Origin: Gemmatimonadaceae bacterium
Lineage (GTDB): Bacteria; Gemmatimonadota; Gemmatimonadetes; Gemmatimonadales; Gemmatimonadaceae
Length of the DNA stretch: 64,000 bases
NCBI GenBank assembly: GCA_036278895.1
Contig: DASUKE010000035.1
Location: forward strand, 15,433-79,432
Direction of reading: 5' to 3'
This document shows positions 6,776-57,225 of the stretch, in pieces. A model generated the notes under the pieces. The model worked only from the letters and a program-made list of their open reading frames with translations. It did no database searches and was not told where the DNA came from. The number at the start of each line of letters is the position of its first letter. Position 1 is the first letter of the stretch. A program made the translations under genes and the position numbers.

Positions 6776-7276
6776 CTACCCCTTCCGCCGCATTTCCTCC
6801 ACCTGATTGGCGAGATGGCTCACCTGCTGGGCCAGACCGGCAACGGCCTGAATCACCTGGTCGATTCTCGGATCGGGTCCCTGTGGGAATCGCGGGCCGA
6901 TTAAGCCGTCGCTCTCGAGCTTCTCGAGTTTCTCCAGCTTGAACTCCTTGTGCTCGTGCTTCTCGTTCTTCTCGAGCTTTTCATTCTTCTCGGCCTTCTC
7001 CGGCTTCTCCGGCTTCTCGACCTTCTCGATCTTGATTTCCTTGGCCCAGTCCTTGGCGACTTCAGGGAAGTCCTTGTCAAAGAAATCCTTCAGGGAAGTC
7101 TTCCCCACTTCGAATGGCGACTTCTGGCTCATGTATCCGAGTATCGCCGACAGCTCGCGCACGCGCAGCTCGCTGATCGGCGTATCGAGGCTGATCCGCA
7201 CTTCCGGACGGTCTTCCTGCGCAACGAAGGGTTCCCGGGACCCCTCCTTCCTCGAGCCTTGATCGGATTTTGGCAT
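6776..7276 (-). CDS. 166-aa Lys/Glu-repeat protein; candidate substrate or precursor of the adjacent ATP-grasp enzymes
   Basis: Track ORF with ATG 7276 preceded by AAGAGG (5-nt spacer). It lies 71 nt downstream of the ATP-grasp stop. Residues 75-121 (KDWAKEIKIEKVEKPEKPEKAEKNEKLEKNEKHEHKEFKLEKLEKLE) hold 15 K and 14 E, including eight consecutive EKx triplets. GAG/AAG codon use is consistent with coding. Confidence 0.8.
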   Translation of the reverse strand: MPKSDQGSRKEGSREPFVAQEDRPEVRISLDTPISELRVRELSAILGYMSQKSPFEVGKTSLKDFFDKDFPEVAKDWAKEIKIEKVEKPEKPEKAEKNEKLEKNEKHEHKEFKLEKLEKLESDGLIGPRFPQGPDPRIDQVIQAVAGLAQQVSHLANQVEEMRRKG

Positions 7277-38970: not shown

Positions 38971-41187
38971 ATGACGCACCGAGCAGTGAGCAGTTGCATG
39001 GCCGCGGCCATGCTGGCATGCAGCGTGGCCGGTACGGTGAAGCTGCACGCGCAGGACGCCGGTCACGATTCCGTCGCGGCACGGAGCCGCACCGGCCGGC
39101 GCCTCTTCAGCAGCAGCGATGCGCTGCGGGTCGCGCGCGTGTTCTCACCGCGCCTCTCGTCTGATGGATCGCGCGTCGCCTATCTCGTCGCCAACGTGGA
39201 GATGAAGAAGGACGAGGCCGGCAAATCGGTGACCAACCTCTGGATGGTCCCGGCCGTCGGCCCCGAGACCGCGGCGAGACAGTTCACGCGCGGCGACCGG
39301 AGCGTCTCCGATCCCGAATGGTCGCCCGACGGGCGGATCATCGCGTTCATCAGATCGACCGGCGACGAGAAGGATGCGAAGCCGCAGGTGTGGTTCATGT
39401 ACGCCGACGGCGGCGAACCCTGGCAGGTGACGAAGCACAAGGCCGGCGTCCGCGGCTTCGAGTTTTCGCCGGACGGAAAGACGCTGCTGCTCATTGCCAC
39501 GAGCCAGCCCGACAGCGGCGACGAGGCGCGCCAGAAGGTCAAGGACGACGCCGTGGTGGTTGATCACGATTTCCGGATGGCCGCGCTGTGGACGTGGTCC
39601 ATCGCGACCGGAAGCGAGAAGCGCATCACGAACGACACCGTTTCGGTCACCGAAGCGCGCTGGTCACCCGATGGCTCCCGCATTGCCTTCACGGCGGCGC
39701 CGACCCCGCGGCTGGATGACACGGATCTCCGCAGCGCCTACGTCCTGGATGTCGCCACCGGGCACGTGCGCAAGCTCGTCGAAACGACAGACGCCACAGG
39801 AACCGCGCGCTGGTCGCCCGATGGGGCGCAGATAGCCTATGTGACCGCCAAAGGTGCCGGTCCATATCAGACGAGTCTCTACGTCGTGGCGGCGAACGGC
39901 GGGGCGCCGCTCAAGCTGACCGCGAATTTCGCGCTCGATGCGGGCGAGCCCTTCTGGTCGCCCGATGGCAAGACCATCTACTTCACGAGCAACACGCGAG
40001 AGTCCGTCGAGGTATTCGCGGCGAGCGTGGGCGGCGGAACGGTGCGCCAGGTCACCACCACGCCCGGAGTCATCCAGCTCGCTGGCATTGATCGCGATGG
40101 ACGCACCGCCATCGGCACGTTCACCGATCCATCGCACCCCGCGGATGTGTTCCGCTGGTCCAATGGCTTCACGTCCTCCGCGGCGATCACGCGGCAGAAC
40201 GCCTGGCTCGCCGACTACGCGCTCGGCGCCACCGACGTGGCGCAGTGGAAGAGCAGCAAGGATGGGCTCGAGATCGATGGCATCGTGACCAGGCCCGTGG
40301 ACTACGATGCATCTCGCAAGTATCCGTTTCTCCTCAATCCGCACGGCGGCCCCACCGGCGCGTCGCTGCTGTCGTTCAACGCGACCGAGCAGGTGATGGC
40401 GGCCAACGGGTACCTCGTGCTCGAACCCAACTTTCGCGGCTCCACGGGACGCGGCGAAAAGTTCGAGTCGGCGAACGTGAACGACTGGGGTGACGGCGAC
40501 TATCAGGATGACATGAGCGGCGTGGACGCCATGATCGCGCACGGCTGGATCGACCCGCAGCGCATGGGTGCGTTCGGCTGGTCGTACGGCGGCTACATGA
40601 CGTTCTGGATTGACACCCAGACCGACCGCTTCAAGGCCATCTCACCCGGCGCCGGTCTTCCTGATCTGTACTCGATGTACGCCGAGACGGACATCCACCG
40701 GTATCTGCGCGAGTTCTTCGATCTCAAGGCGCCGTACGACAACTACCAGGAGTACTGGAACCATTCGCCAATGAAGTACGTCGCGAAGGTGAAGACTCCC
40801 ACGATGATTCTGCACGGGCAGGCGGACACCCGCGTGCCGATCCCGCAGGCGGAGGAGTTCTACCGCGCGTTGTACGATCACCACGTGCCGGTGGAGTTCG
40901 TGACGTATCCGCGCGAGAATCACGGCTTCGCGGAGCCACGCCACATTCAGGACCGGCTGCAGCGCTATCTCGTATTCTTTGGCAAGTACCTCGGCAACCC
41001 GCCGGTCACGGAACCGGCGGATGTGGTCACGCGAATGACCAGGGACCTGCCGGGGGCGGTCCGCACCCCACCCCCCGCCCTTGGGAATGGGCAATCGGGA
41101 ATGGGGAATCGTGGGAATGGGGAATGGGGAGGCCGATTCCCCATTCGCACGGCTCCACTCGGGATCAAAGGGTTCAGAGTCGATTGA
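38971..41187 (+). CDS. S9-family prolyl oligopeptidase/acylaminoacyl-peptidase with TolB-like beta-propeller
   Basis: ATG 38971 is preceded by GAGGA and begins a signal peptide. Repeated WSPDG blades are present. Motifs: GWSYGGYM nucleophile, HGQADTRVP, ENHGF. The last ~60 codons read through GGGAAT repeats and may not belong to the native protein. Confidence 0.9.
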   Translation: MTHRAVSSCMAAAMLACSVAGTVKLHAQDAGHDSVAARSRTGRRLFSSSDALRVARVFSPRLSSDGSRVAYLVANVEMKKDEAGKSVTNLWMVPAVGPETAARQFTRGDRSVSDPEWSPDGRIIAFIRSTGDEKDAKPQVWFMYADGGEPWQVTKHKAGVRGFEFSPDGKTLLLIATSQPDSGDEARQKVKDDAVVVDHDFRMAALWTWSIATGSEKRITNDTVSVTEARWSPDGSRIAFTAAPTPRLDDTDLRSAYVLDVATGHVRKLVETTDATGTARWSPDGAQIAYVTAKGAGPYQTSLYVVAANGGAPLKLTANFALDAGEPFWSPDGKTIYFTSNTRESVEVFAASVGGGTVRQVTTTPGVIQLAGIDRDGRTAIGTFTDPSHPADVFRWSNGFTSSAAITRQNAWLADYALGATDVAQWKSSKDGLEIDGIVTRPVDYDASRKYPFLLNPHGGPTGASLLSFNATEQVMAANGYLVLEPNFRGSTGRGEKFESANVNDWGDGDYQDDMSGVDAMIAHGWIDPQRMGAFGWSYGGYMTFWIDTQTDRFKAISPGAGLPDLYSMYAETDIHRYLREFFDLKAPYDNYQEYWNHSPMKYVAKVKTPTMILHGQADTRVPIPQAEEFYRALYDHHVPVEFVTYPRENHGFAEPRHIQDRLQRYLVFFGKYLGNPPVTEPADVVTRMTRDLPGAVRTPPPALGNGQSGMGNRGNGEWGGRFPIRTAPLGIKGFRVD

Positions 41188-41248
41188 TTTTCATCAGCCG
41201 GCAGCGACCAGCCACCAGCTACCGTGGTTTAACCAGCTGTTCAAGCGA

Positions 41249-41391
41249 GACAGGATTTCAGGATTGACGGGATCAACAGGATTCTCACGGCGCCGTTCCA
41301 AAAGCATTTGCCGTCATTCAGCGAACGGACTGAAACTTTGAGACTCAGCTCCCAACAATCCTGTTAATCCCGTCAATCCTGAAATCCTGTC
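41249..41391 (+). repeat. Inverted-arm repeat element, copy 1 (MITE-like/REP-like, 143 bp)
   Basis: The left arm GACAGGATTTCAGGATTGACGGGATCAACAGGATT and the reverse complement of the right arm match at 34 of 35 positions. The conserved core reads CTCACGGCGCCGTTCCAAAAGCATTTGCCGTCATTCAGCGAACGGACTGAAACTTTGAGACTCAGCTCCCAAC. It is followed by CTTCTTTTTG and lies between convergent genes. Confidence 0.85.
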
Positions 41392-41415
41392 TTCTTTTTG
41401 GCGATCAACGGGCAG

Positions 41416-46338: not shown

Positions 46339-46493
46339 GACAGGATTTACCGGATTCACAGGACTGACAGGATTGATTCGAGCCGAATCCCAAGGTTTCA
46401 GTCCGTTCGCTGAATGACGGCAAATGCCTTTTGGAACGGCACCGTGTGATTCCTGTTGATCCGGTGCATCCCGTGAATCCCGTTAATCCTGTC
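46339..46493 (-). repeat. Inverted-arm repeat element, copy 2 (inverted orientation, 155 bp)
   Basis: The reverse complement reads ...GGATCAACAGGAATCACACGGTGCCGTTCCAAAAGGCATTTGCCGTCATTCAGCGAACGGACTGAAACCTTGGGATTCGGCTCGAATCAATCCTGTCAGTCCTGTGAATCCGGTAAATCCTGTC. This is collinear with copies 1 and 3. It lies between the convergent pheA and DinB-family genes. Confidence 0.85.
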
Positions 46494-46570
46494 CGGTCGT
46501 GAGCAGTGGCGCAGCACGCTACTCGAATCCGCGGCACAATTCGACTGGCCCAGACAATCCTCCCCCGCAA

Positions 46571-53193: not shown

Positions 53194-53294
53194 GATGTGC
53201 TCTCCGAATCGAGTGGTCACGGGACCGAGCAGGCTCCGCGCGGGAGAGGCGCAACAGTCATGCCCGCCGGCACTCCCGCGACCGGCCACCCCGC

Positions 53295-53366
53295 GCCCAT
53301 CGCGACCGGCTACCTCGGGCCCATCGCGACCGGCCACCTCGGGCCCATCGCGACCCGCTACTGGGC
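53295..53366. repeat. 24-bp tandem repeat x3 (GCCCATCGCGACCGGCYACCTCGG)
   Basis: Units start at 53295, 53319 and 53343. The third unit runs into the stop codon (53358-53360) of the mechanosensitive-channel gene. Confidence 0.8.
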
Positions 53367-55382
53367 CGTCGTATCCTGCGGCAAGTTCATGGTCACCTGC
53401 GACTCCCCGGCCACGGCATCGTGCAGCGTCTTCACCATGAGCTGGTCGTTGGCCGCCGCGCGGTCGGGCAGCACCGGATAGCGCACGGTGAACTCGAAGC
53501 CGGTGTCCGTGTAGCGCACATCCACACGCGGCTCGGGCGAGGTCGTCTCGAAGTCCACCAGCCGCTGCACCGCGGCGTGCTGCGCGTCGATCGTCTCCTT
53601 GTATGTGCCGTAGACCGATTCGGCGGCCGCCTGCAGCCGCTCCTGCACGGCGCGCACATCCGTCGTGGGCGCGAGCGTGAGCGTCACCGAGTGCCATACG
53701 TACTCGGCGCCGGGGATCTGCTTGAACAGCGCCTCGGGCTTGAACAGCACCGCGTTCGACAGCACGACGATGCGCCCCGTGGGCTGCAGCTCCGGACCGG
53801 ACAGCTCCATCACGTACAGACGGATCAATCCGATTTCCACCACGCGGCCCGTCACGCCGGCGAGCGTGATGCGATCGCCCAGTCGCACGCCGTAGCGCCC
53901 GATGAGAAAGAAGTACGCGACGACGGCCAGGATCACGTTCTGCAGCGCCACCGCGATGCCCGCGGTGAGGAAGCCCACGTAGGTGGCCAGCGAGCCGATT
54001 TCCGAGACGAATCCGAGAAAGAGGATGACGAGCAGCGCGATCGCGACGGCCACGCGCCGCAGCAGGAGAAACTGGCGGCGGCGGCGTGTGTCGTGCAGGT
54101 ACTTGAAGGTGGCGCGACGCCAGAATTCCGAGATGAGCAGCACCAGCGCGATGCAGAGCGCGAGCACCGCGGCGCGGAAGGCAATGTTGCGCGCGACCTC
54201 GAGCGCGCGCTCGCTGAAGGTCGTGCTCAGTGCCGCCAGCGTACCGCGCGCATCATCCATCGTGATGTCCTGTTCGCTGAGCGGAACCAGCACGGTGGAC
54301 AGCTTCCGGAACTGCGCCGTGGCGGTCTCGGTCTGGCGCTGCGCCACGACACTCGCGCCGGTACTGGTCGATAGCGTATCGGCCATGCTGGTGCGGACCA
54401 GCGTGCTCACCTGGCGGCCCACGGCGCGACGCAGGCTGTCCAGCTCGCCCGACAGCCTGTCGGTCGTCTTGATCGCGTCGTCCACCTGCCGGCGCGTGGC
54501 GCGCAGGGAGAACCATTCGCTGGCCAGCGGGATGAGACCCGCAGACGACGGGCGGATGGCCACGGTGGAGGAGACGGACGCGTTGCTGGCGGGTGACGGT
54601 ACGCTGACGCTCGCACCGGTGTCGGCCGTCCCGGTGCGACCCGCCGTTTCGCGCGACGCCGAGGCCGCGCTGCGCGTCTCGGGCACCGTGCGTTGCAGGT
54701 CGGCGATCTGCGTGGCGAGCGACGCGGCGCCGCCGCCCGCGGACGTTGATCGTGCCGCGAACTGCTGGAGTTGCACGACCGTCTTCTGTACTTCCAGGGT
54801 GAGGTCGAGCGAGGCCTGTACCTGCGCCCGACGCGTGGTGAGCGAGTCCCGCGTTCGCGCGCGTGCACTCGCGATCTCGGTGTCGAGCTCCTTCACCCGC
54901 GACTGCAGCGCGGACGCGCGCGCGGCGAGGCGTGCTCTCGTGCGCGCCATGCGCGCCGCGTCATCGGATGAGTCCGGCGGCGCGCTTCCGGCGACAGCTG
55001 CACCGGGTCCGAGCACGGAGGCAGCGGCGTTGCTGAAATAAAAGGCGAACTGAACGGCCGCGATGGACGACTGTCGCAGGCGCTCGCGATCCACTTCGTC
55101 ATCGGCCAGCCCGGATGACTGGCCCAGCGCGGTCAACTGGCGATACCAGTCCACCGTTCGGGTGAGGTGCTCAAGAACCTGTGTTCCCGTCACCGAACCC
55201 AGCGGCGGCGCGGGAGCCGCTGGAGTCTGCGCAACGGCCGCCGGGAAAATGCCGGCGGCCGCGAGCAGGATGGCGAGACGCGCAACGAGAGCGAAACGGA
55301 TACGAGGCCTGCGCGATAGGGACGCTGGCACGAGCGACGAACGAGCTACGGAAATGTCGCCACCCCCCGGGTCCTTGTCCAC
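53358..55382 (-). CDS. Mechanosensitive ion channel (MscS-family, MscK-like long form)
   Basis: GTG 55382. A signal-like N-terminus and a long coiled-coil periplasmic region are followed by TM helices and the MscS core GDRITLAGVTGRVVEIGLIRLYVMEL. Confidence 0.85.
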   Translation of the reverse strand: MDKDPGGGDISVARSSLVPASLSRRPRIRFALVARLAILLAAAGIFPAAVAQTPAAPAPPLGSVTGTQVLEHLTRTVDWYRQLTALGQSSGLADDEVDRERLRQSSIAAVQFAFYFSNAAASVLGPGAAVAGSAPPDSSDDAARMARTRARLAARASALQSRVKELDTEIASARARTRDSLTTRRAQVQASLDLTLEVQKTVVQLQQFAARSTSAGGGAASLATQIADLQRTVPETRSAASASRETAGRTGTADTGASVSVPSPASNASVSSTVAIRPSSAGLIPLASEWFSLRATRRQVDDAIKTTDRLSGELDSLRRAVGRQVSTLVRTSMADTLSTSTGASVVAQRQTETATAQFRKLSTVLVPLSEQDITMDDARGTLAALSTTFSERALEVARNIAFRAAVLALCIALVLLISEFWRRATFKYLHDTRRRRQFLLLRRVAVAIALLVILFLGFVSEIGSLATYVGFLTAGIAVALQNVILAVVAYFFLIGRYGVRLGDRITLAGVTGRVVEIGLIRLYVMELSGPELQPTGRIVVLSNAVLFKPEALFKQIPGAEYVWHSVTLTLAPTTDVRAVQERLQAAAESVYGTYKETIDAQHAAVQRLVDFETTSPEPRVDVRYTDTGFEFTVRYPVLPDRAAANDQLMVKTLHDAVAGESQVTMNLPQDTTAQ

Positions 55383-55537
55383 ACGTCGCTCTGGTCTCGC
55401 CGCGTCGCGAGCGCGACCGGTGCAGCGCGCCGGCGATCGAGGAGCGTACCGCGCGCCGGCGATCGGCGGGACAGGATTTCAGGGAAATCCGAGCTTGCGT
55501 GGTTCCGGGCAGCCTGCTCCAGCCCTGCTAACGGCTG

Positions 55538-55682
55538 GACAGGATTTCAGGATTGACAGGATTCACACCGATTCTCACGGCGCCGTTCCCAAAGCAGTTG
55601 TCGTCGTTCAGCGAACGGACTGAAATTTTGAGTCTCGGCTCCCAACAATCCTGTTCATCCTGTCAATCCTGTAAATCCTGTC
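55538..55682 (+). repeat. Inverted-arm repeat element, copy 3 (145 bp)
   Basis: The sequence reads GACAGGATTTCAGGATTGACAGGATTCACACCGATT-CTCACGGCGCCGTTCCCAAAGCAGTTGTCGTCGTTCAGCGAACGGACTGAAATTTTGAGTCTCGGCTCCCAAC-AATCCTGTTCATCCTGTCAATCCTGTAAATCCTGTC, followed by ATTTTTTTG. Arm fragments also occur at 55470-55490 and 55706-55715. Confidence 0.85.
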
Positions 55683-55750
55683 ATTTTTTTGTCTGTTGGT
55701 TGCGCAAATCCTGTCAGCTACACGAAGCAAAGCCCGGTGTCCGCTACCTG

Positions 55751-56236
55751 TCACTCACAGGACTGAACAGGCTCGACAGCATTCGCGACCTGGGAAATCG
55801 TCGGCAGAACGATGGACTGTTCTGGTGATGGCGATACGTCCTGCAGAGCCTGTCGTGATGTCCGCGAACGATACGTGTGCACTTTCCTCTGAAATTGCAG
55901 CGACGCTGAGCCGAAGTTGAAAAGTAACCCAACCTCCATGCGCGTCGCGGCGAGGTAGTTGACGAGTTGGGCACCGTGAGCTGGCCCCAGCGTCTGAACT
56001 GACTTGATCTCCACGAGGACACAGCCAGCCACCACCATATCGGCCACGAAATTGCCGACGACCACGCCGTCATACTGCACCCGAATCCTGCGGGCGCATT
56101 GCACGGGAAGAGTCGCCTTCCGCAATTCATGCGCGAGCGCATTCTGATACACCGACTCGAGAAACCCCGACCCGAGTTTCCGATGCACCATCATCGCACA
56201 ACCAATGATGGCCCGTGTCACGTCCTCATGCTCCAT
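55751..56236 (-). CDS. GxxExxY protein (PD-(D/E)XK nuclease superfamily) with C-terminal read-through tail
   Basis: ATG 56236 is preceded by AGGAGG. The sequence reads IIGCAMMVHRKLGSGFLESVYQNALAHEL...VADMVVAGCVLVEIKSV...HGAQLVNYLAATRMEVGLLFNFG. The track start 56275 is over-extended. About 35 extra C-terminal residues exceed the usual family length. Confidence 0.85.
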   Translation of the reverse strand: MEHEDVTRAIIGCAMMVHRKLGSGFLESVYQNALAHELRKATLPVQCARRIRVQYDGVVVGNFVADMVVAGCVLVEIKSVQTLGPAHGAQLVNYLAATRMEVGLLFNFGSASLQFQRKVHTYRSRTSRQALQDVSPSPEQSIVLPTISQVANAVEPVQSCE

Positions 56237-56276
56237 CAATCCCTCCTGCATGCACCCTCCACTGACACCGCCCAAT

Positions 56277-56315
56277 CAGGAATCCTGTCAATCCCGTGAA
56301 TCCTGAAATCCTGTC
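56277..56315. repeat. Solo arm of the repeat element, upstream of the GxxExxY gene
   Basis: CAGGAATCCTGTCAATCCCGTGAATCCTGAAATCCTGTC has the same sub-repeat structure as the right arms of copies 1 and 3. Confidence 0.8.
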
Positions 56316-56498
56316 CAATGTTCTGCCAGAAAAATGGATTCTCCATTGGACTTCGCCGCACCATTATCATGCCCGCAGGAGCATTGCCCTGCGCTCCTAC
56401 GTCGCTCCCGGAACACCCGGCGCGCCAGCATCGTTTCACCAGAGTCGGAACGCGACAAGCCTGCGCCGCGCATCTTCCACTCGCAACACGGACCACCC

Positions 56499-57206
56499 AT
56501 GGATCTCTCCACCGCGAAAGTGCTCGTCACCGGCGGCAGCTCGGGAATCGGCTTCGCCACCGCCAAACGCCTCGCTGACGCCGGCGCCCGCGTCGCCATC
56601 TGCGGACGCAATGCCGCGGCGCTCCGCACCGCCGCAAAGGAAATTGGCGCCACGCCCATCGAAGCCGACGTGAGCCGCGAAGCCGACGTCGCGCGTCTCG
56701 TCGCCACCGTCATCCGCGAGCTCGGCGGCTACGACACGCTCATCAACAACGCGGGCTTTGGCCGCTTCGCGCCACTCATCGACATGACGACCGCTGACTT
56801 CCGCAGCGTCTGGGAAACCAACGTGCTCGGCGCCATGCTCGTCGCCCGCGATTCGGCGCGCCACTTCGTGCAGCAGCGCCGCGGCAATATCGTCAATGTG
56901 GCGTCGACATCCGGCCAGCGCGGCGGCGCCAATGGCACCGCCTATTCGTCGAGCAAGTTCGCGCTCGCGGGACTCACCGATGTGTGGCGCACCGAACTCC
57001 GGCAGTATGACGTGCGCGTCATGCAGATCAATCCGAGCGAGGTGCTCACGGCGTTCCGCGCTAACTCTGGCCGACCGGGTCCGGCCGAGAACCAATCCAA
57101 GCTCCACGCCGATGACATTGCCGCGGTGATCGCGGACATGCTGGCGCTGAGCGATCGCACCCTAGTGAAGGATGTTACCGTGTGGGCCACCAATCCCATT
57201 GATTGA
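56499..57206 (+). CDS. Short-chain dehydrogenase/reductase (SDR)
   Basis: ATG 56499 starts MDLSTAKVLVTGGSSGIGFATAKRL (TGxxxGIG). Motifs: NNAG, and YSSSK (YxxxK) with upstream Ser. Confidence 0.9.
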   Translation: MDLSTAKVLVTGGSSGIGFATAKRLADAGARVAICGRNAAALRTAAKEIGATPIEADVSREADVARLVATVIRELGGYDTLINNAGFGRFAPLIDMTTADFRSVWETNVLGAMLVARDSARHFVQQRRGNIVNVASTSGQRGGANGTAYSSSKFALAGLTDVWRTELRQYDVRVMQINPSEVLTAFRANSGRPGPAENQSKLHADDIAAVIADMLALSDRTLVKDVTVWATNPID

Positions 57207-57225
57207 TTGATTGATTGATTGATTG
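57198..57225. repeat. (ATTG)7 tetranucleotide microsatellite spanning the SDR stop codon
   Basis: Seven perfect ATTG units were read directly. The SDR stop TGA (57204-57206) lies inside the repeat. Confidence 0.9.

Follow-up and report, generated by a model that had tools for sequence, protein, structure and literature searches.

Among described systems, the closest to the element reported here is that of the repetitive extragenic palindromic (REP) sequences, whose inverted doublets (REPINs) are maintained by REP-associated tyrosine transposases (RAYTs). The element is a hairpin repeat of ~150 bp, consisting of a core between two inverted arms of short tandem units, and was found in a stretch of 64,000 nucleotides from a soil Gemmatimonadaceae bacterium (GenBank assembly GCA_036278895.1, contig DASUKE010000035.1, positions 15,433 to 79,432 of the forward strand; hereafter the window). 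Like REP/REPIN-RAYT systems, it involves short intergenic hairpin repeats arranged as inverted doublets, mostly behind the 3' ends of genes, long vertical inheritance at fixed sites, a single- or low-copy gene flanked by the same repeats and outnumbered by gene-less copies, and a repeat sequence that co-varies with the clade of the associated protein. In contrast, the partner gene here encodes a PD-(D/E)XK protein of the GxxExxY family instead of an IS200-like HUH/Y1 transposase, the arms are tandem arrays of non-palindromic 8-10-nt units whereas a REP is an imperfect palindrome of 20-40 nt with a GTAG head, and the hairpins enclose a conserved core of 73 nt. No RAYT gene was found associated with the element, and the REP sequence signature was absent. 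On our best reading, the element should be filed with the bacterial hairpin repeats of the REP or miniature inverted-repeat transposable element (MITE) type, as one that would work like the REPIN-RAYT system without being a member of it. Tentatively, and with slightly less than even confidence, we propose that it belongs, as a non-autonomous member without a gene, to a class of selfish cassettes whose gene-bearing members encode a small GxxExxY PD-(D/E)XK nuclease.

Other known families share part of this organisation. The Correia (NEMIS) elements of Neisseria are likewise intergenic MITEs of ~150 bp with terminal inverted repeats of ~26-35 bp, which form RNA hairpins, are present or absent between strains and lack a transposase in the short element. 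They differ in their TA target-site duplication, of which none was found here, and in having no sequence similarity to our element, whose inverted repeats are internally repetitive with a variable number of units and whose ends are shared by a candidate partner gene. As in MITEs generally, terminal inverted repeats are present in all copies and insertion is polymorphic, copy 2 being absent from locus L056 and copy 3 from locus L044 through either gain or loss; in place of an autonomous transposase, the only arm-sharing gene is GxxExxY/PDDEXK_3. The bacterial interspersed mosaic elements (BIMEs) of E. coli show a comparable mosaicism, which here takes the form of arm-core-arm units with or without outer L and R modules, located beside repeats of the GGGGAAT and GGTAGCT families, but the motifs differ, and binding of integration host factor (IHF), gyrase or DNA polymerase I (Pol I) would be hypothetical for our element. 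An initial annotation of the window had suggested a MITE or a REP/BIME-like element, which agrees with the dispersed copies, their bias towards 3' ends, their presence or absence between relatives and their mosaic structure, but not with the lack of a visible target-site duplication, a known transposase, a RAYT or a REP signature. The intervening sequences of 23S rRNA, with their S23p four-helix-bundle open reading frame (ORF), also combine a small ORF in inverted repeats, a long stem and a patchy distribution across phyla; they differ in protein family and in lying within rRNA rather than between protein-coding genes, and excision of the stem by RNase III is only hypothetical for the element described here. 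The short tandemly repeated heptanucleotide sequences (STRRs) of cyanobacteria resemble it as intergenic arrays of 7-9-nt units, and the window also has a GGGAATG array (41083-41130); to our knowledge, no pairing of STRRs into inverted arms that enclose a core or gene has been described. Unlike the cassettes of an integron attC array, the copies in the window are separated by ordinary housekeeping genes.

The components of the family in the window are the following:

41249-41391, + strand: copy 1; left arm 41249-41283, of four units (GACAGGATT TCAGGATT GACGGGATC AACAGGATT), core 41284-41356, right arm 41357-41391
46339-46493, - strand (inverted): copy 2; five units in one arm and four in the other
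46494-46570, - strand: L module of copy 2, extending to the stop codon of DinB
55465-55537, + strand: outer unit pair GACAGGATTTCAGG (55470-55483) and L module of copy 3
55538-55682, + strand: copy 3; left arm of three clean units, core 55573-55646, right arm of four units
55683-55735, + strand: R module of copy 3, including an extra AATCCTGTC unit (55707-55715)
55751-56275, - strand: GxxExxY/PDDEXK_3 nuclease-fold gene, likely start ATG at 56236
55755-55790, - strand: decayed arm, reading AATGCTGTC GAGCCTGTTC AGTCCTGTG on that strand
56281-56315, + strand: solo arm of four units, reading AATCCTG on the + strand, 45 nt upstream of the GxxExxY ATG

The arms consist of a unit of ~9 bp, here (A/G)ACAGGAT(T/G), whose sequence can also be given as ACAGGATT. 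The heptamer CAGGATT occurs 24 times in the window, as compared with 4.3 +/- 2.2 in shuffled sequences, none of which (0/100) reached 24. A core profile search identified exactly three core-bearing copies, those that the initial annotation had listed, which align at a mean column identity of 85% with TTCAGCGAACGGACTGAAA invariant among all three; what that listing had missed is the solo arm and two isolated units at 55472 and 55707. The near-perfect pairing that it had described for the arms of copy 1 was recovered by a repeat search as 36 nt (41248-41283 and 41357-41392) with 97% complementarity and 73 nt between them. Arms of four units, on the other hand, hold for copy 1 but not for copy 2, with five against four; the left arm of copy 3 has three clean units. 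Exact matches to the 18-mer TTCAG-N8-CTGAA of the core are confined, within the window, to the three elements, and we consequently rejected it as a regulator site used elsewhere in the window.

Among non-orthologous copies, similarity continues for ~100 nt past the arms on both sides, in what we refer to as the L and R modules. The L module has the order ...GACAGGATTTCAGG, ~55 nt, CTGCTAACGGCTG, and GACAGGATT comes directly after it; a direct repeat of GGACAGGATTTCAGG, common to all family members, marks the borders of the module. The R module comes after AATCCTGTC and reads TCAATTCTGCCCGTCCGGTGAATCCTGTC... Since both lie outside the arms, are partly complementary and contain one outer unit each, a full family member constitutes a nested hairpin of ~300 nt. 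Both modules are found at copy 3, only L at copy 2 and neither at copy 1. The L module of copy 2 shares homology with the sequence to the left of copy 3 and of further members, and copies 2 and 3 are 74% identical across 247 nt. As for their sites, copy 1 lies between the convergent genes of an S9 peptidase (forward) and an M28 peptidase (reverse), and copy 2 between those of prephenate dehydratase (PDT, forward) and DinB (reverse), convergent settings that agree with the initial annotation. Copy 3 is located 69 nt downstream of the GxxExxY stop codon, with the 3' end of that gene on one side and the start of a gene for a 674-aa protein on the other, both genes being on the - strand; the GxxExxY gene itself had been overlooked in that annotation.

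No other feature of the locus is as informative as this gene. Its product matches TIGR04256 (E = 3e-40) and Pfam PF13366 (E = 8e-38), with 137 bits (cut-off 35) and 130 bits (cut-off 22), and the translation contains the motifs GFLESVY and D...VEIK, so that the D...ExK catalytic motif is intact. The AlphaFold model of the protein has a predicted confidence (pLDDT) above 90 at residues 1-120, and its closest folds are Cas4, lambda exonuclease and MGME1 (TM ~0.45, E ~1e-3); no entry of the PDB matches GxxExxY by sequence. The modelled Cas4/lambda exonuclease/MGME1-like fold, together with D...ExK, makes a nuclease plausible. Read on the - strand, the locus consists of the solo arm (GACAGGATTTCAGGATTCACGGGATTGACAGGATTC), the gene, the decayed inverted arm (55790-55755), the R module, copy 3 and the L module. 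The solo arm is 94% identical to the right arm of copy 1, and the decayed arm, inverted relative to it, lies at the 3' end of the reading frame; as the GxxExxY domain stops at residue 132 of 174, the tail of the ORF runs through this arm. Hence, the only GxxExxY gene of the window is bracketed by arms of the hairpin type. Neither a transposase nor an invertase was detected in a domain scan of the seven other proteins adjoining the three copies.

The family is very large, with at least 4,600 matches among those listed. In a literature search, in which subscription journals were outside scope, GxxExxY appeared only as an incidental annotation or as a family of unknown function with multiple transfers, as PDDEXK_3 is listed by Steczkiewicz et al. 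(2012). Neither the unit arrays nor their association with the gene were described in the papers searched, although an earlier description may exist outside that scope, and the search yielded nothing relevant on REP elements in Gemmatimonadetes or under the TIGRFAM numbers. Signs of horizontal origin and decay are, besides the multiple transfers, the low G+C content at third codon positions (GC3) of the gene in the window (71%, against 79-87% in neighbouring genes), the 5' truncation of the gene in locus L006 and a gene stub in locus L048. The latter (L048, 5684-5818) was called as a 44-aa gene and consists of the first 31 GxxExxY codons fused to CAGGAT units; it is a deletion derivative, with a hairpin on either side and an intact GxxExxY gene upstream of it.

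The association between gene and arrays recurs elsewhere. The set of close homologs comprised seven independent GxxExxY loci (56-74% identity), which together with the window make eight loci of the CAGGAT clade. CAGGAT-type arrays are located within 300 nt of the gene in all eight, with 27 arrays in the 8.3 kb near the genes versus 8 in the 109 kb elsewhere. In the usual layout, an ATCCTGT array ends 5-16 nt before the ATG and an arm-core-arm hairpin follows directly 3' of the gene; in four loci (L041, L045, L046 and L053) the TGA stop codon doubles as the start of the first unit, TGACAGGAT. The cores of these hairpins measure 25-50 nt and are unrelated both between lineages and to the core in the window. 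Locus L046, from a Verrucomicrobia metagenome-assembled genome (MAG), has four or five arm-core-arm hairpins around the gene. More distant homologs, with 33-46% identity and located on named plasmids, were also compared, and the repeats at GxxExxY genes of other organisms include:

Gemmatirosa kalamazoonensis: ACGCGGATN x3, a 17-nt loop and ATCCGCGNN x3 (CGCGGAT units)
Bacteroides finegoldii: CACAGAGGA and TCCTCTGTG (CACAGAG(G) units)
Bernardetia: CACAGAGA and TCTCTGTG (CACAGAG(G) units)
Sphingomonas, between fabD and fabG: CGCGAAG x3 upstream and CTTCGCG x3 in the 3' tail
Treponema: a single inverted pair, CACGGATTCG
Persicobacter: GGGATT and AATCC arrays
Fusobacteria bacterium ZRK30 plasmid (L069), ~601-975: a 27-nt direct repeat, CAGATTTAATCCGTGTACCTAT(T/C)AAAA, flanking the gene, with no inverted arrays

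Inverted 8-mers common to the upstream and the 3'-end or downstream flanks were found in 10 of the 14 GxxExxY loci of other organisms, and were matched by 0-1 of 200 shuffles. Bracketed or array-followed genes occur in Verrucomicrobia, Bacteroidota, Alphaproteobacteria, Spirochaetota and another member of the Gemmatimonadaceae, that is, in at least five phyla when Gemmatimonadota is included. The GxxExxY protein of the Verrucomicrobia MAG is 62% identical to that of the window and the CAGGAT motif is found at both, whereas that of G. kalamazoonensis, a member of the window host's own family, is 34% identical and is accompanied by CGCGGAT units; therefore, the unit motif follows the clade of the protein and not the host. 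Gene-less hairpins outnumber genes, as in the window, with three hairpins to one gene. The CGCGGAT hairpin of Gemmatirosa occurs at seven places on plasmid 1 and at ten on plasmid 2, the latter having no GxxExxY match at E <= 1e-10.

The genomic surroundings of these genes are diverse. On a Sphingomonas parapaucimobilis plasmid (L066, 989-1417) the gene is a co-directional insertion between fabD and fabG, and in Bernardetia (L065) it lies, again co-directionally, between ade and the gene for mannose-1-phosphate guanylyltransferase; the spacers of these operon insertions range from a few bases to ~55 bases, and what is annotated as the C-terminal tail in Sphingomonas is the translated CTTCGCG array. 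In locus L040 (1-2047), the GxxExxY gene is adjoined by a gene for a reverse transcriptase (RVT_1) and by a large serine recombinase; a reverse transcriptase paper from 2021 likewise reported a GxxExxY gene beside such an enzyme.

According to the explanation that we favour, the ends of the cassette would be the inverted arrays of ~9-bp units, and its cargo the GxxExxY gene in some members and a short core in others. The GxxExxY protein would bind, and probably cut, DNA at the unit arrays, and might thereby maintain, duplicate or move its own cassette as well as, in trans, the gene-less hairpins, as RAYTs do for REP/REPIN doublets. Once placed, usually behind gene 3' ends, a hairpin would be nearly neutral, with a possible secondary role, as RNA, in forming a stem where transcripts end. 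We infer this link between enzyme and repeat, and the interaction of protein and repeat, from the arrangement of genes and arrays. We put forward with more reserve the wider claim that GxxExxY proteins and clade-specific inverted arrays of ~9-bp units might together constitute a previously undescribed, cross-phylum class of selfish elements, an analogue of RAYT/REPIN with a different nuclease fold, that propagates both the cassette and gene-less hairpins.

The behaviour of the copies at orthologous sites bears on their mobility. Locus L004 (MAG SMAG_U11248) is collinear with the window at 38.8-47 kb, with 94% nucleotide and 95-98% protein identity, and carries copies 1 and 2 at orthologous sites, copy 1 (L004, 2497-2639) with 7 differences in 143 nt. 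Further orthologs of copy 2 were found in L008 and L034, and an ortholog of copy 3 in L006. The initial annotation had recommended a search for empty sites, and two were found. In L056, where the PDT is 85% identical and its convergent pairing with DinB is kept, the site of copy 2 is empty, with 48 nt and no arm units between the stop codons of the two genes; the corresponding spacing in the window is 278 nt, of which 232 nt are occupied by arm-core-arm and L module. L044 is syntenic with the copy 3 locus (short-chain dehydrogenase 87%, GxxExxY 69% and 674-aa protein 82% identical) and keeps the GxxExxY gene, the upstream four-unit arm and the downstream inverted arm; the core, the inner arm and both the L and R modules are missing. 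Gain or loss of core-bearing hairpins thus takes place over distances at which proteins have diverged by 15-20%, either direction being possible. The element is not hyper-mobile, and is inherited in place over short distances.

Further copies were identified in relatives by bait scans, using an exact 19-mer against GTDB representative genomes and the 18-mer against JGI metagenomes. The 19-mer gave three true matches, which belong to two Gemmatimonadaceae MAGs, and one within a coding region that we attribute to chance; the 18-mer gave 35 loci with ~24 true copies at ~15 distinct sites, mostly from soil or rhizosphere. The plasmid collection contained no copy of the window element. Copies occur at a density of about one per 20-50 kb in unselected flanks and the window. 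That the 18-mer looks invariant is in part an artefact, because copies were collected with it as bait; among four copies found without this bait, the 18-mer carries 1-3 mismatches in three, and the core of the fourth is a different one.

Two sets of these copies illustrate how the parts vary. In L016 (1640-1795) and L025 (261-416), CAGGATT arms surround an unrelated 99-nt core that has only its last ~10 nt (GGCTCCGAAC) in common with the others, which shows that cores are exchangeable between identical arms. L011 (6495-6688), L027 (3047-3221) and L033 (2805-2989) represent one locus from three metagenomes, at which the right arm has 10, 8 and 9 units (CATCCTGTT repeats), respectively, a polymorphism within the population.

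Several observations weigh against the selfish cassette hypothesis. Four of the 14 loci (L040, L063, L064 and L069) have no inverted bracket upstream and downstream of the gene: L040 has an array at the gene 3' end only, L063 a local downstream hairpin and L064 arrays without a bracket. Among ~35 Gemmatimonadaceae loci with core elements, a GxxExxY gene is nearby only in the window and in its ortholog L006, so that any action would have to be in trans. Since copies 1 and 2 are unchanged at the orthologous sites of L004, any mobility must be slow. No direct repeat lies beside the arms of copies 1-3, and the empty sites of L056 and L044 align too poorly at their junctions to define a target or a cut site; neither a target-site duplication nor a defined cut site was found. 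The 73-nt core is not derived from the GxxExxY gene, and the cassette hypothesis does not account for its role. Finally, between the window and L004 the elements differ at 14 of 298 positions (4.7%) as compared with 21 of 189 four-fold degenerate sites of the prephenate dehydratase gene (11.1%). The elements are constrained, or homogenised between copies, and this slower divergence could mean a function at the level of the host instead of selfishness.

The main rival is a role at the RNA level, in which the hairpin would act chiefly as a stem-loop at transcript 3' ends for exonuclease protection, termination or RNase III cutting, the arrays would insulate or excise the GxxExxY message in the manner of 23S rRNA intervening sequences, and spread would be a side issue. 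We consider it unlikely as the primary explanation, while recognising that it is compatible with the cassette idea and that the two are not mutually exclusive. Several results are in its favour. Folding is very stable: the energies for copy 1 are -74.3 (+ strand) and -87.8 kcal/mol (- strand), with z-scores of -10.2 and -12.3, respectively. Rough gene calls place a gene 3' end on 22 of the 31 flanking sides and a convergent gene pair around 8 of the 14 copies that could be classified. The reverse strand, which folds better in 11 of 15 independent copies (not significant), is co-directional in all three window copies with the gene ending just upstream. The T-runs noted at the outset behind the plus-orientation copies 1 and 3 are real. 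GxxExxY genes are found within operons with almost no spacer, as between fabD and fabG in Sphingomonas, and would therefore depend on read-through transcription, and the slow evolution of the elements relative to four-fold degenerate sites would also fit.

What speaks against an RNA role is, above all, that pairing is not conserved. When left arms were compared with the reverse complements of right arms, mismatches were found at 13 of 282 motif positions but at 28 of 127 linker positions; 27 of the 41 are incompatible with G-U pairing on either strand, and unit numbers are unequal between the arms of 11 of 16 copies. The conserved feature is the CAGGAT motif rather than stem pairing. The clustering of mismatches in linkers, together with the unequal unit numbers, points to recognition of the sequence, most simply as DNA, combined with replication slippage, and not to a selected RNA helix. 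Nor do the mismatch types show a wobble bias that would indicate the strand of a putative RNA. RNAalifold gave weak consensus structures on both strands, with 0-2 covarying pairs, the low divergence of the sample limiting its power. The T-runs are present on one strand only and are absent at copy 2 and at most related copies; stem plus U-tract, as expected of an intrinsic terminator, is not conserved among homologous sites, and the bidirectional terminator initially proposed is thus not upheld as a conserved role. A terminator consensus scan did not flag the elements, which its loop limit of 3-8 nt would exclude in any case. Furthermore, a generic stem leaves unexplained why Verrucomicrobia and Gemmatimonadaceae share a motif that differs within Gemmatimonadaceae.

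It is improbable, in our view, that the hairpins are REP-like repeats of the host and the GxxExxY cassettes homing elements that insert in or near them, the arms being a target and not mobile ends. The excess of gene-less hairpins over genes would agree with such a scenario, as would a gene sitting between complete hairpins (L046), the 27-nt direct repeat around the gene in L069, and the apparent addition of the window's core hairpin to, or its loss from, an older locus of gene plus arms. However, with a motif that follows the clade of the protein, the same target repeat would have to pre-exist independently in different phyla, and in several phyla the stop codon and the start-proximal array are tightly fused to the gene.

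A small structured RNA or a cis-regulatory element residing in the core, with the arms merely closing the stem, is very improbable. The core is 80-90% conserved among the ~15 distinct copies and offers several possible helices, with a few compensatory-looking changes such as TTGGG/CCCAA to CTGGG/CCCAG, but these helices are mutually exclusive, and no measure convincingly exceeded shuffle controls: neither of two hand-built core structures did so, the observed number of double changes being reached by 44 of 500 shuffles. Rfam 15 gave no match at gathering score anywhere in the window and none at E <= 1 for 55350-56400, and a promoter consensus scan found nothing promoter-like in the elements. 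Moreover, L016 combines identical arms with an unrelated 99-nt core, and the cores of other lineages are unrelated as well. The structured RNA gene suggested by the initial annotation accordingly finds no backing in Rfam, in covariation or in the mismatches, which are mostly not wobble-compatible. The possibility that the core is a small ORF, or what is left of the GxxExxY gene, was also rejected, as it has no similarity at the DNA or peptide level and the substitutions between copies are not codon-like.

Least probable of all is an invertible DNA switch, in which a site-specific recombinase would flip the core between the inverted arms: L013 (5341-5507) does have core and arms inverted relative to its outer L and R modules, but ~9 other copies have the standard orientation, each site was seen in a single orientation only, including those represented in several metagenomes, the adjoining proteins include no invertase, 73 nt is very short for recombinase-mediated inversion and, unlike in an inverton, the core contains no promoter-like site.

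Other short repeats occur near the element and elsewhere in the window. At 41083-41150, in the 3' tail of the S9 peptidase ORF, a GGGAATG array of 6.6 units is followed by a short inverted partner, CGATTCCCCATTC; L004 lacks this array and shows instead a tandem duplication of CAATGGGGTCAGAGTCGATTG. The array represents a second family of short-unit repeats, one that varies between genomes with 94% identity. At 41160-41235, the left flank of copy 1 (GGGTTCAGAGTCGATTG...CCAGCCACCAGCTACC) corresponds to the right half of a third hairpin family, whose complete form is found in L002 (3225-3400) with left arms of (GGTAGCT)n; copy 1 together with this flank has a 251-nt paralog in L002, with 90% identity. 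Since copy 1 adjoins pieces of two other short-unit families, its architecture is mosaic and BIME-like. The right-flank similarity that ends at ...GATACGTGAAGATC was considered as a conserved gene end and rejected, as similarity stops there and reading frames are not kept. A 24-nt tandem repeat (53277-53361; 3.3 copies, 92% match) lies across the 3' end of the 674-aa ORF (53358-55382, - strand), for which there was no Pfam match. A perfect (ATTG)x7 microsatellite at 57198-57225, unusual at 66% G+C, spans the stop codon of the short-chain dehydrogenase gene. At 6913-7033, a 9-nt periodic array of 13 copies, similar to TCTCGAGCT, is apparently coding, as a Lys/Glu-rich repeat on the reverse strand; it is unrelated to the CAGGAT arrays.

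The hairpin class to which the element belongs is widespread and apparently undescribed so far, and it has practical consequences, since such hairpins break assemblies and mislead ORF callers in genomes of Gemmatimonadota and Verrucomicrobiota. A link between GxxExxY/PDDEXK_3 proteins and clade-specific arrays gives this family a testable job, namely the binding or cutting of unit arrays. The same link would explain the recurrent intergenic repeats of soil phyla, and also why gene callers extend these proteins by odd tails of the type 'QDxQD' or 'NPVNPV'; the consensus of a GxxExxY alignment ends in QDxQD. If confirmed, it would represent a second, independent invention of the REPIN-RAYT lifestyle.

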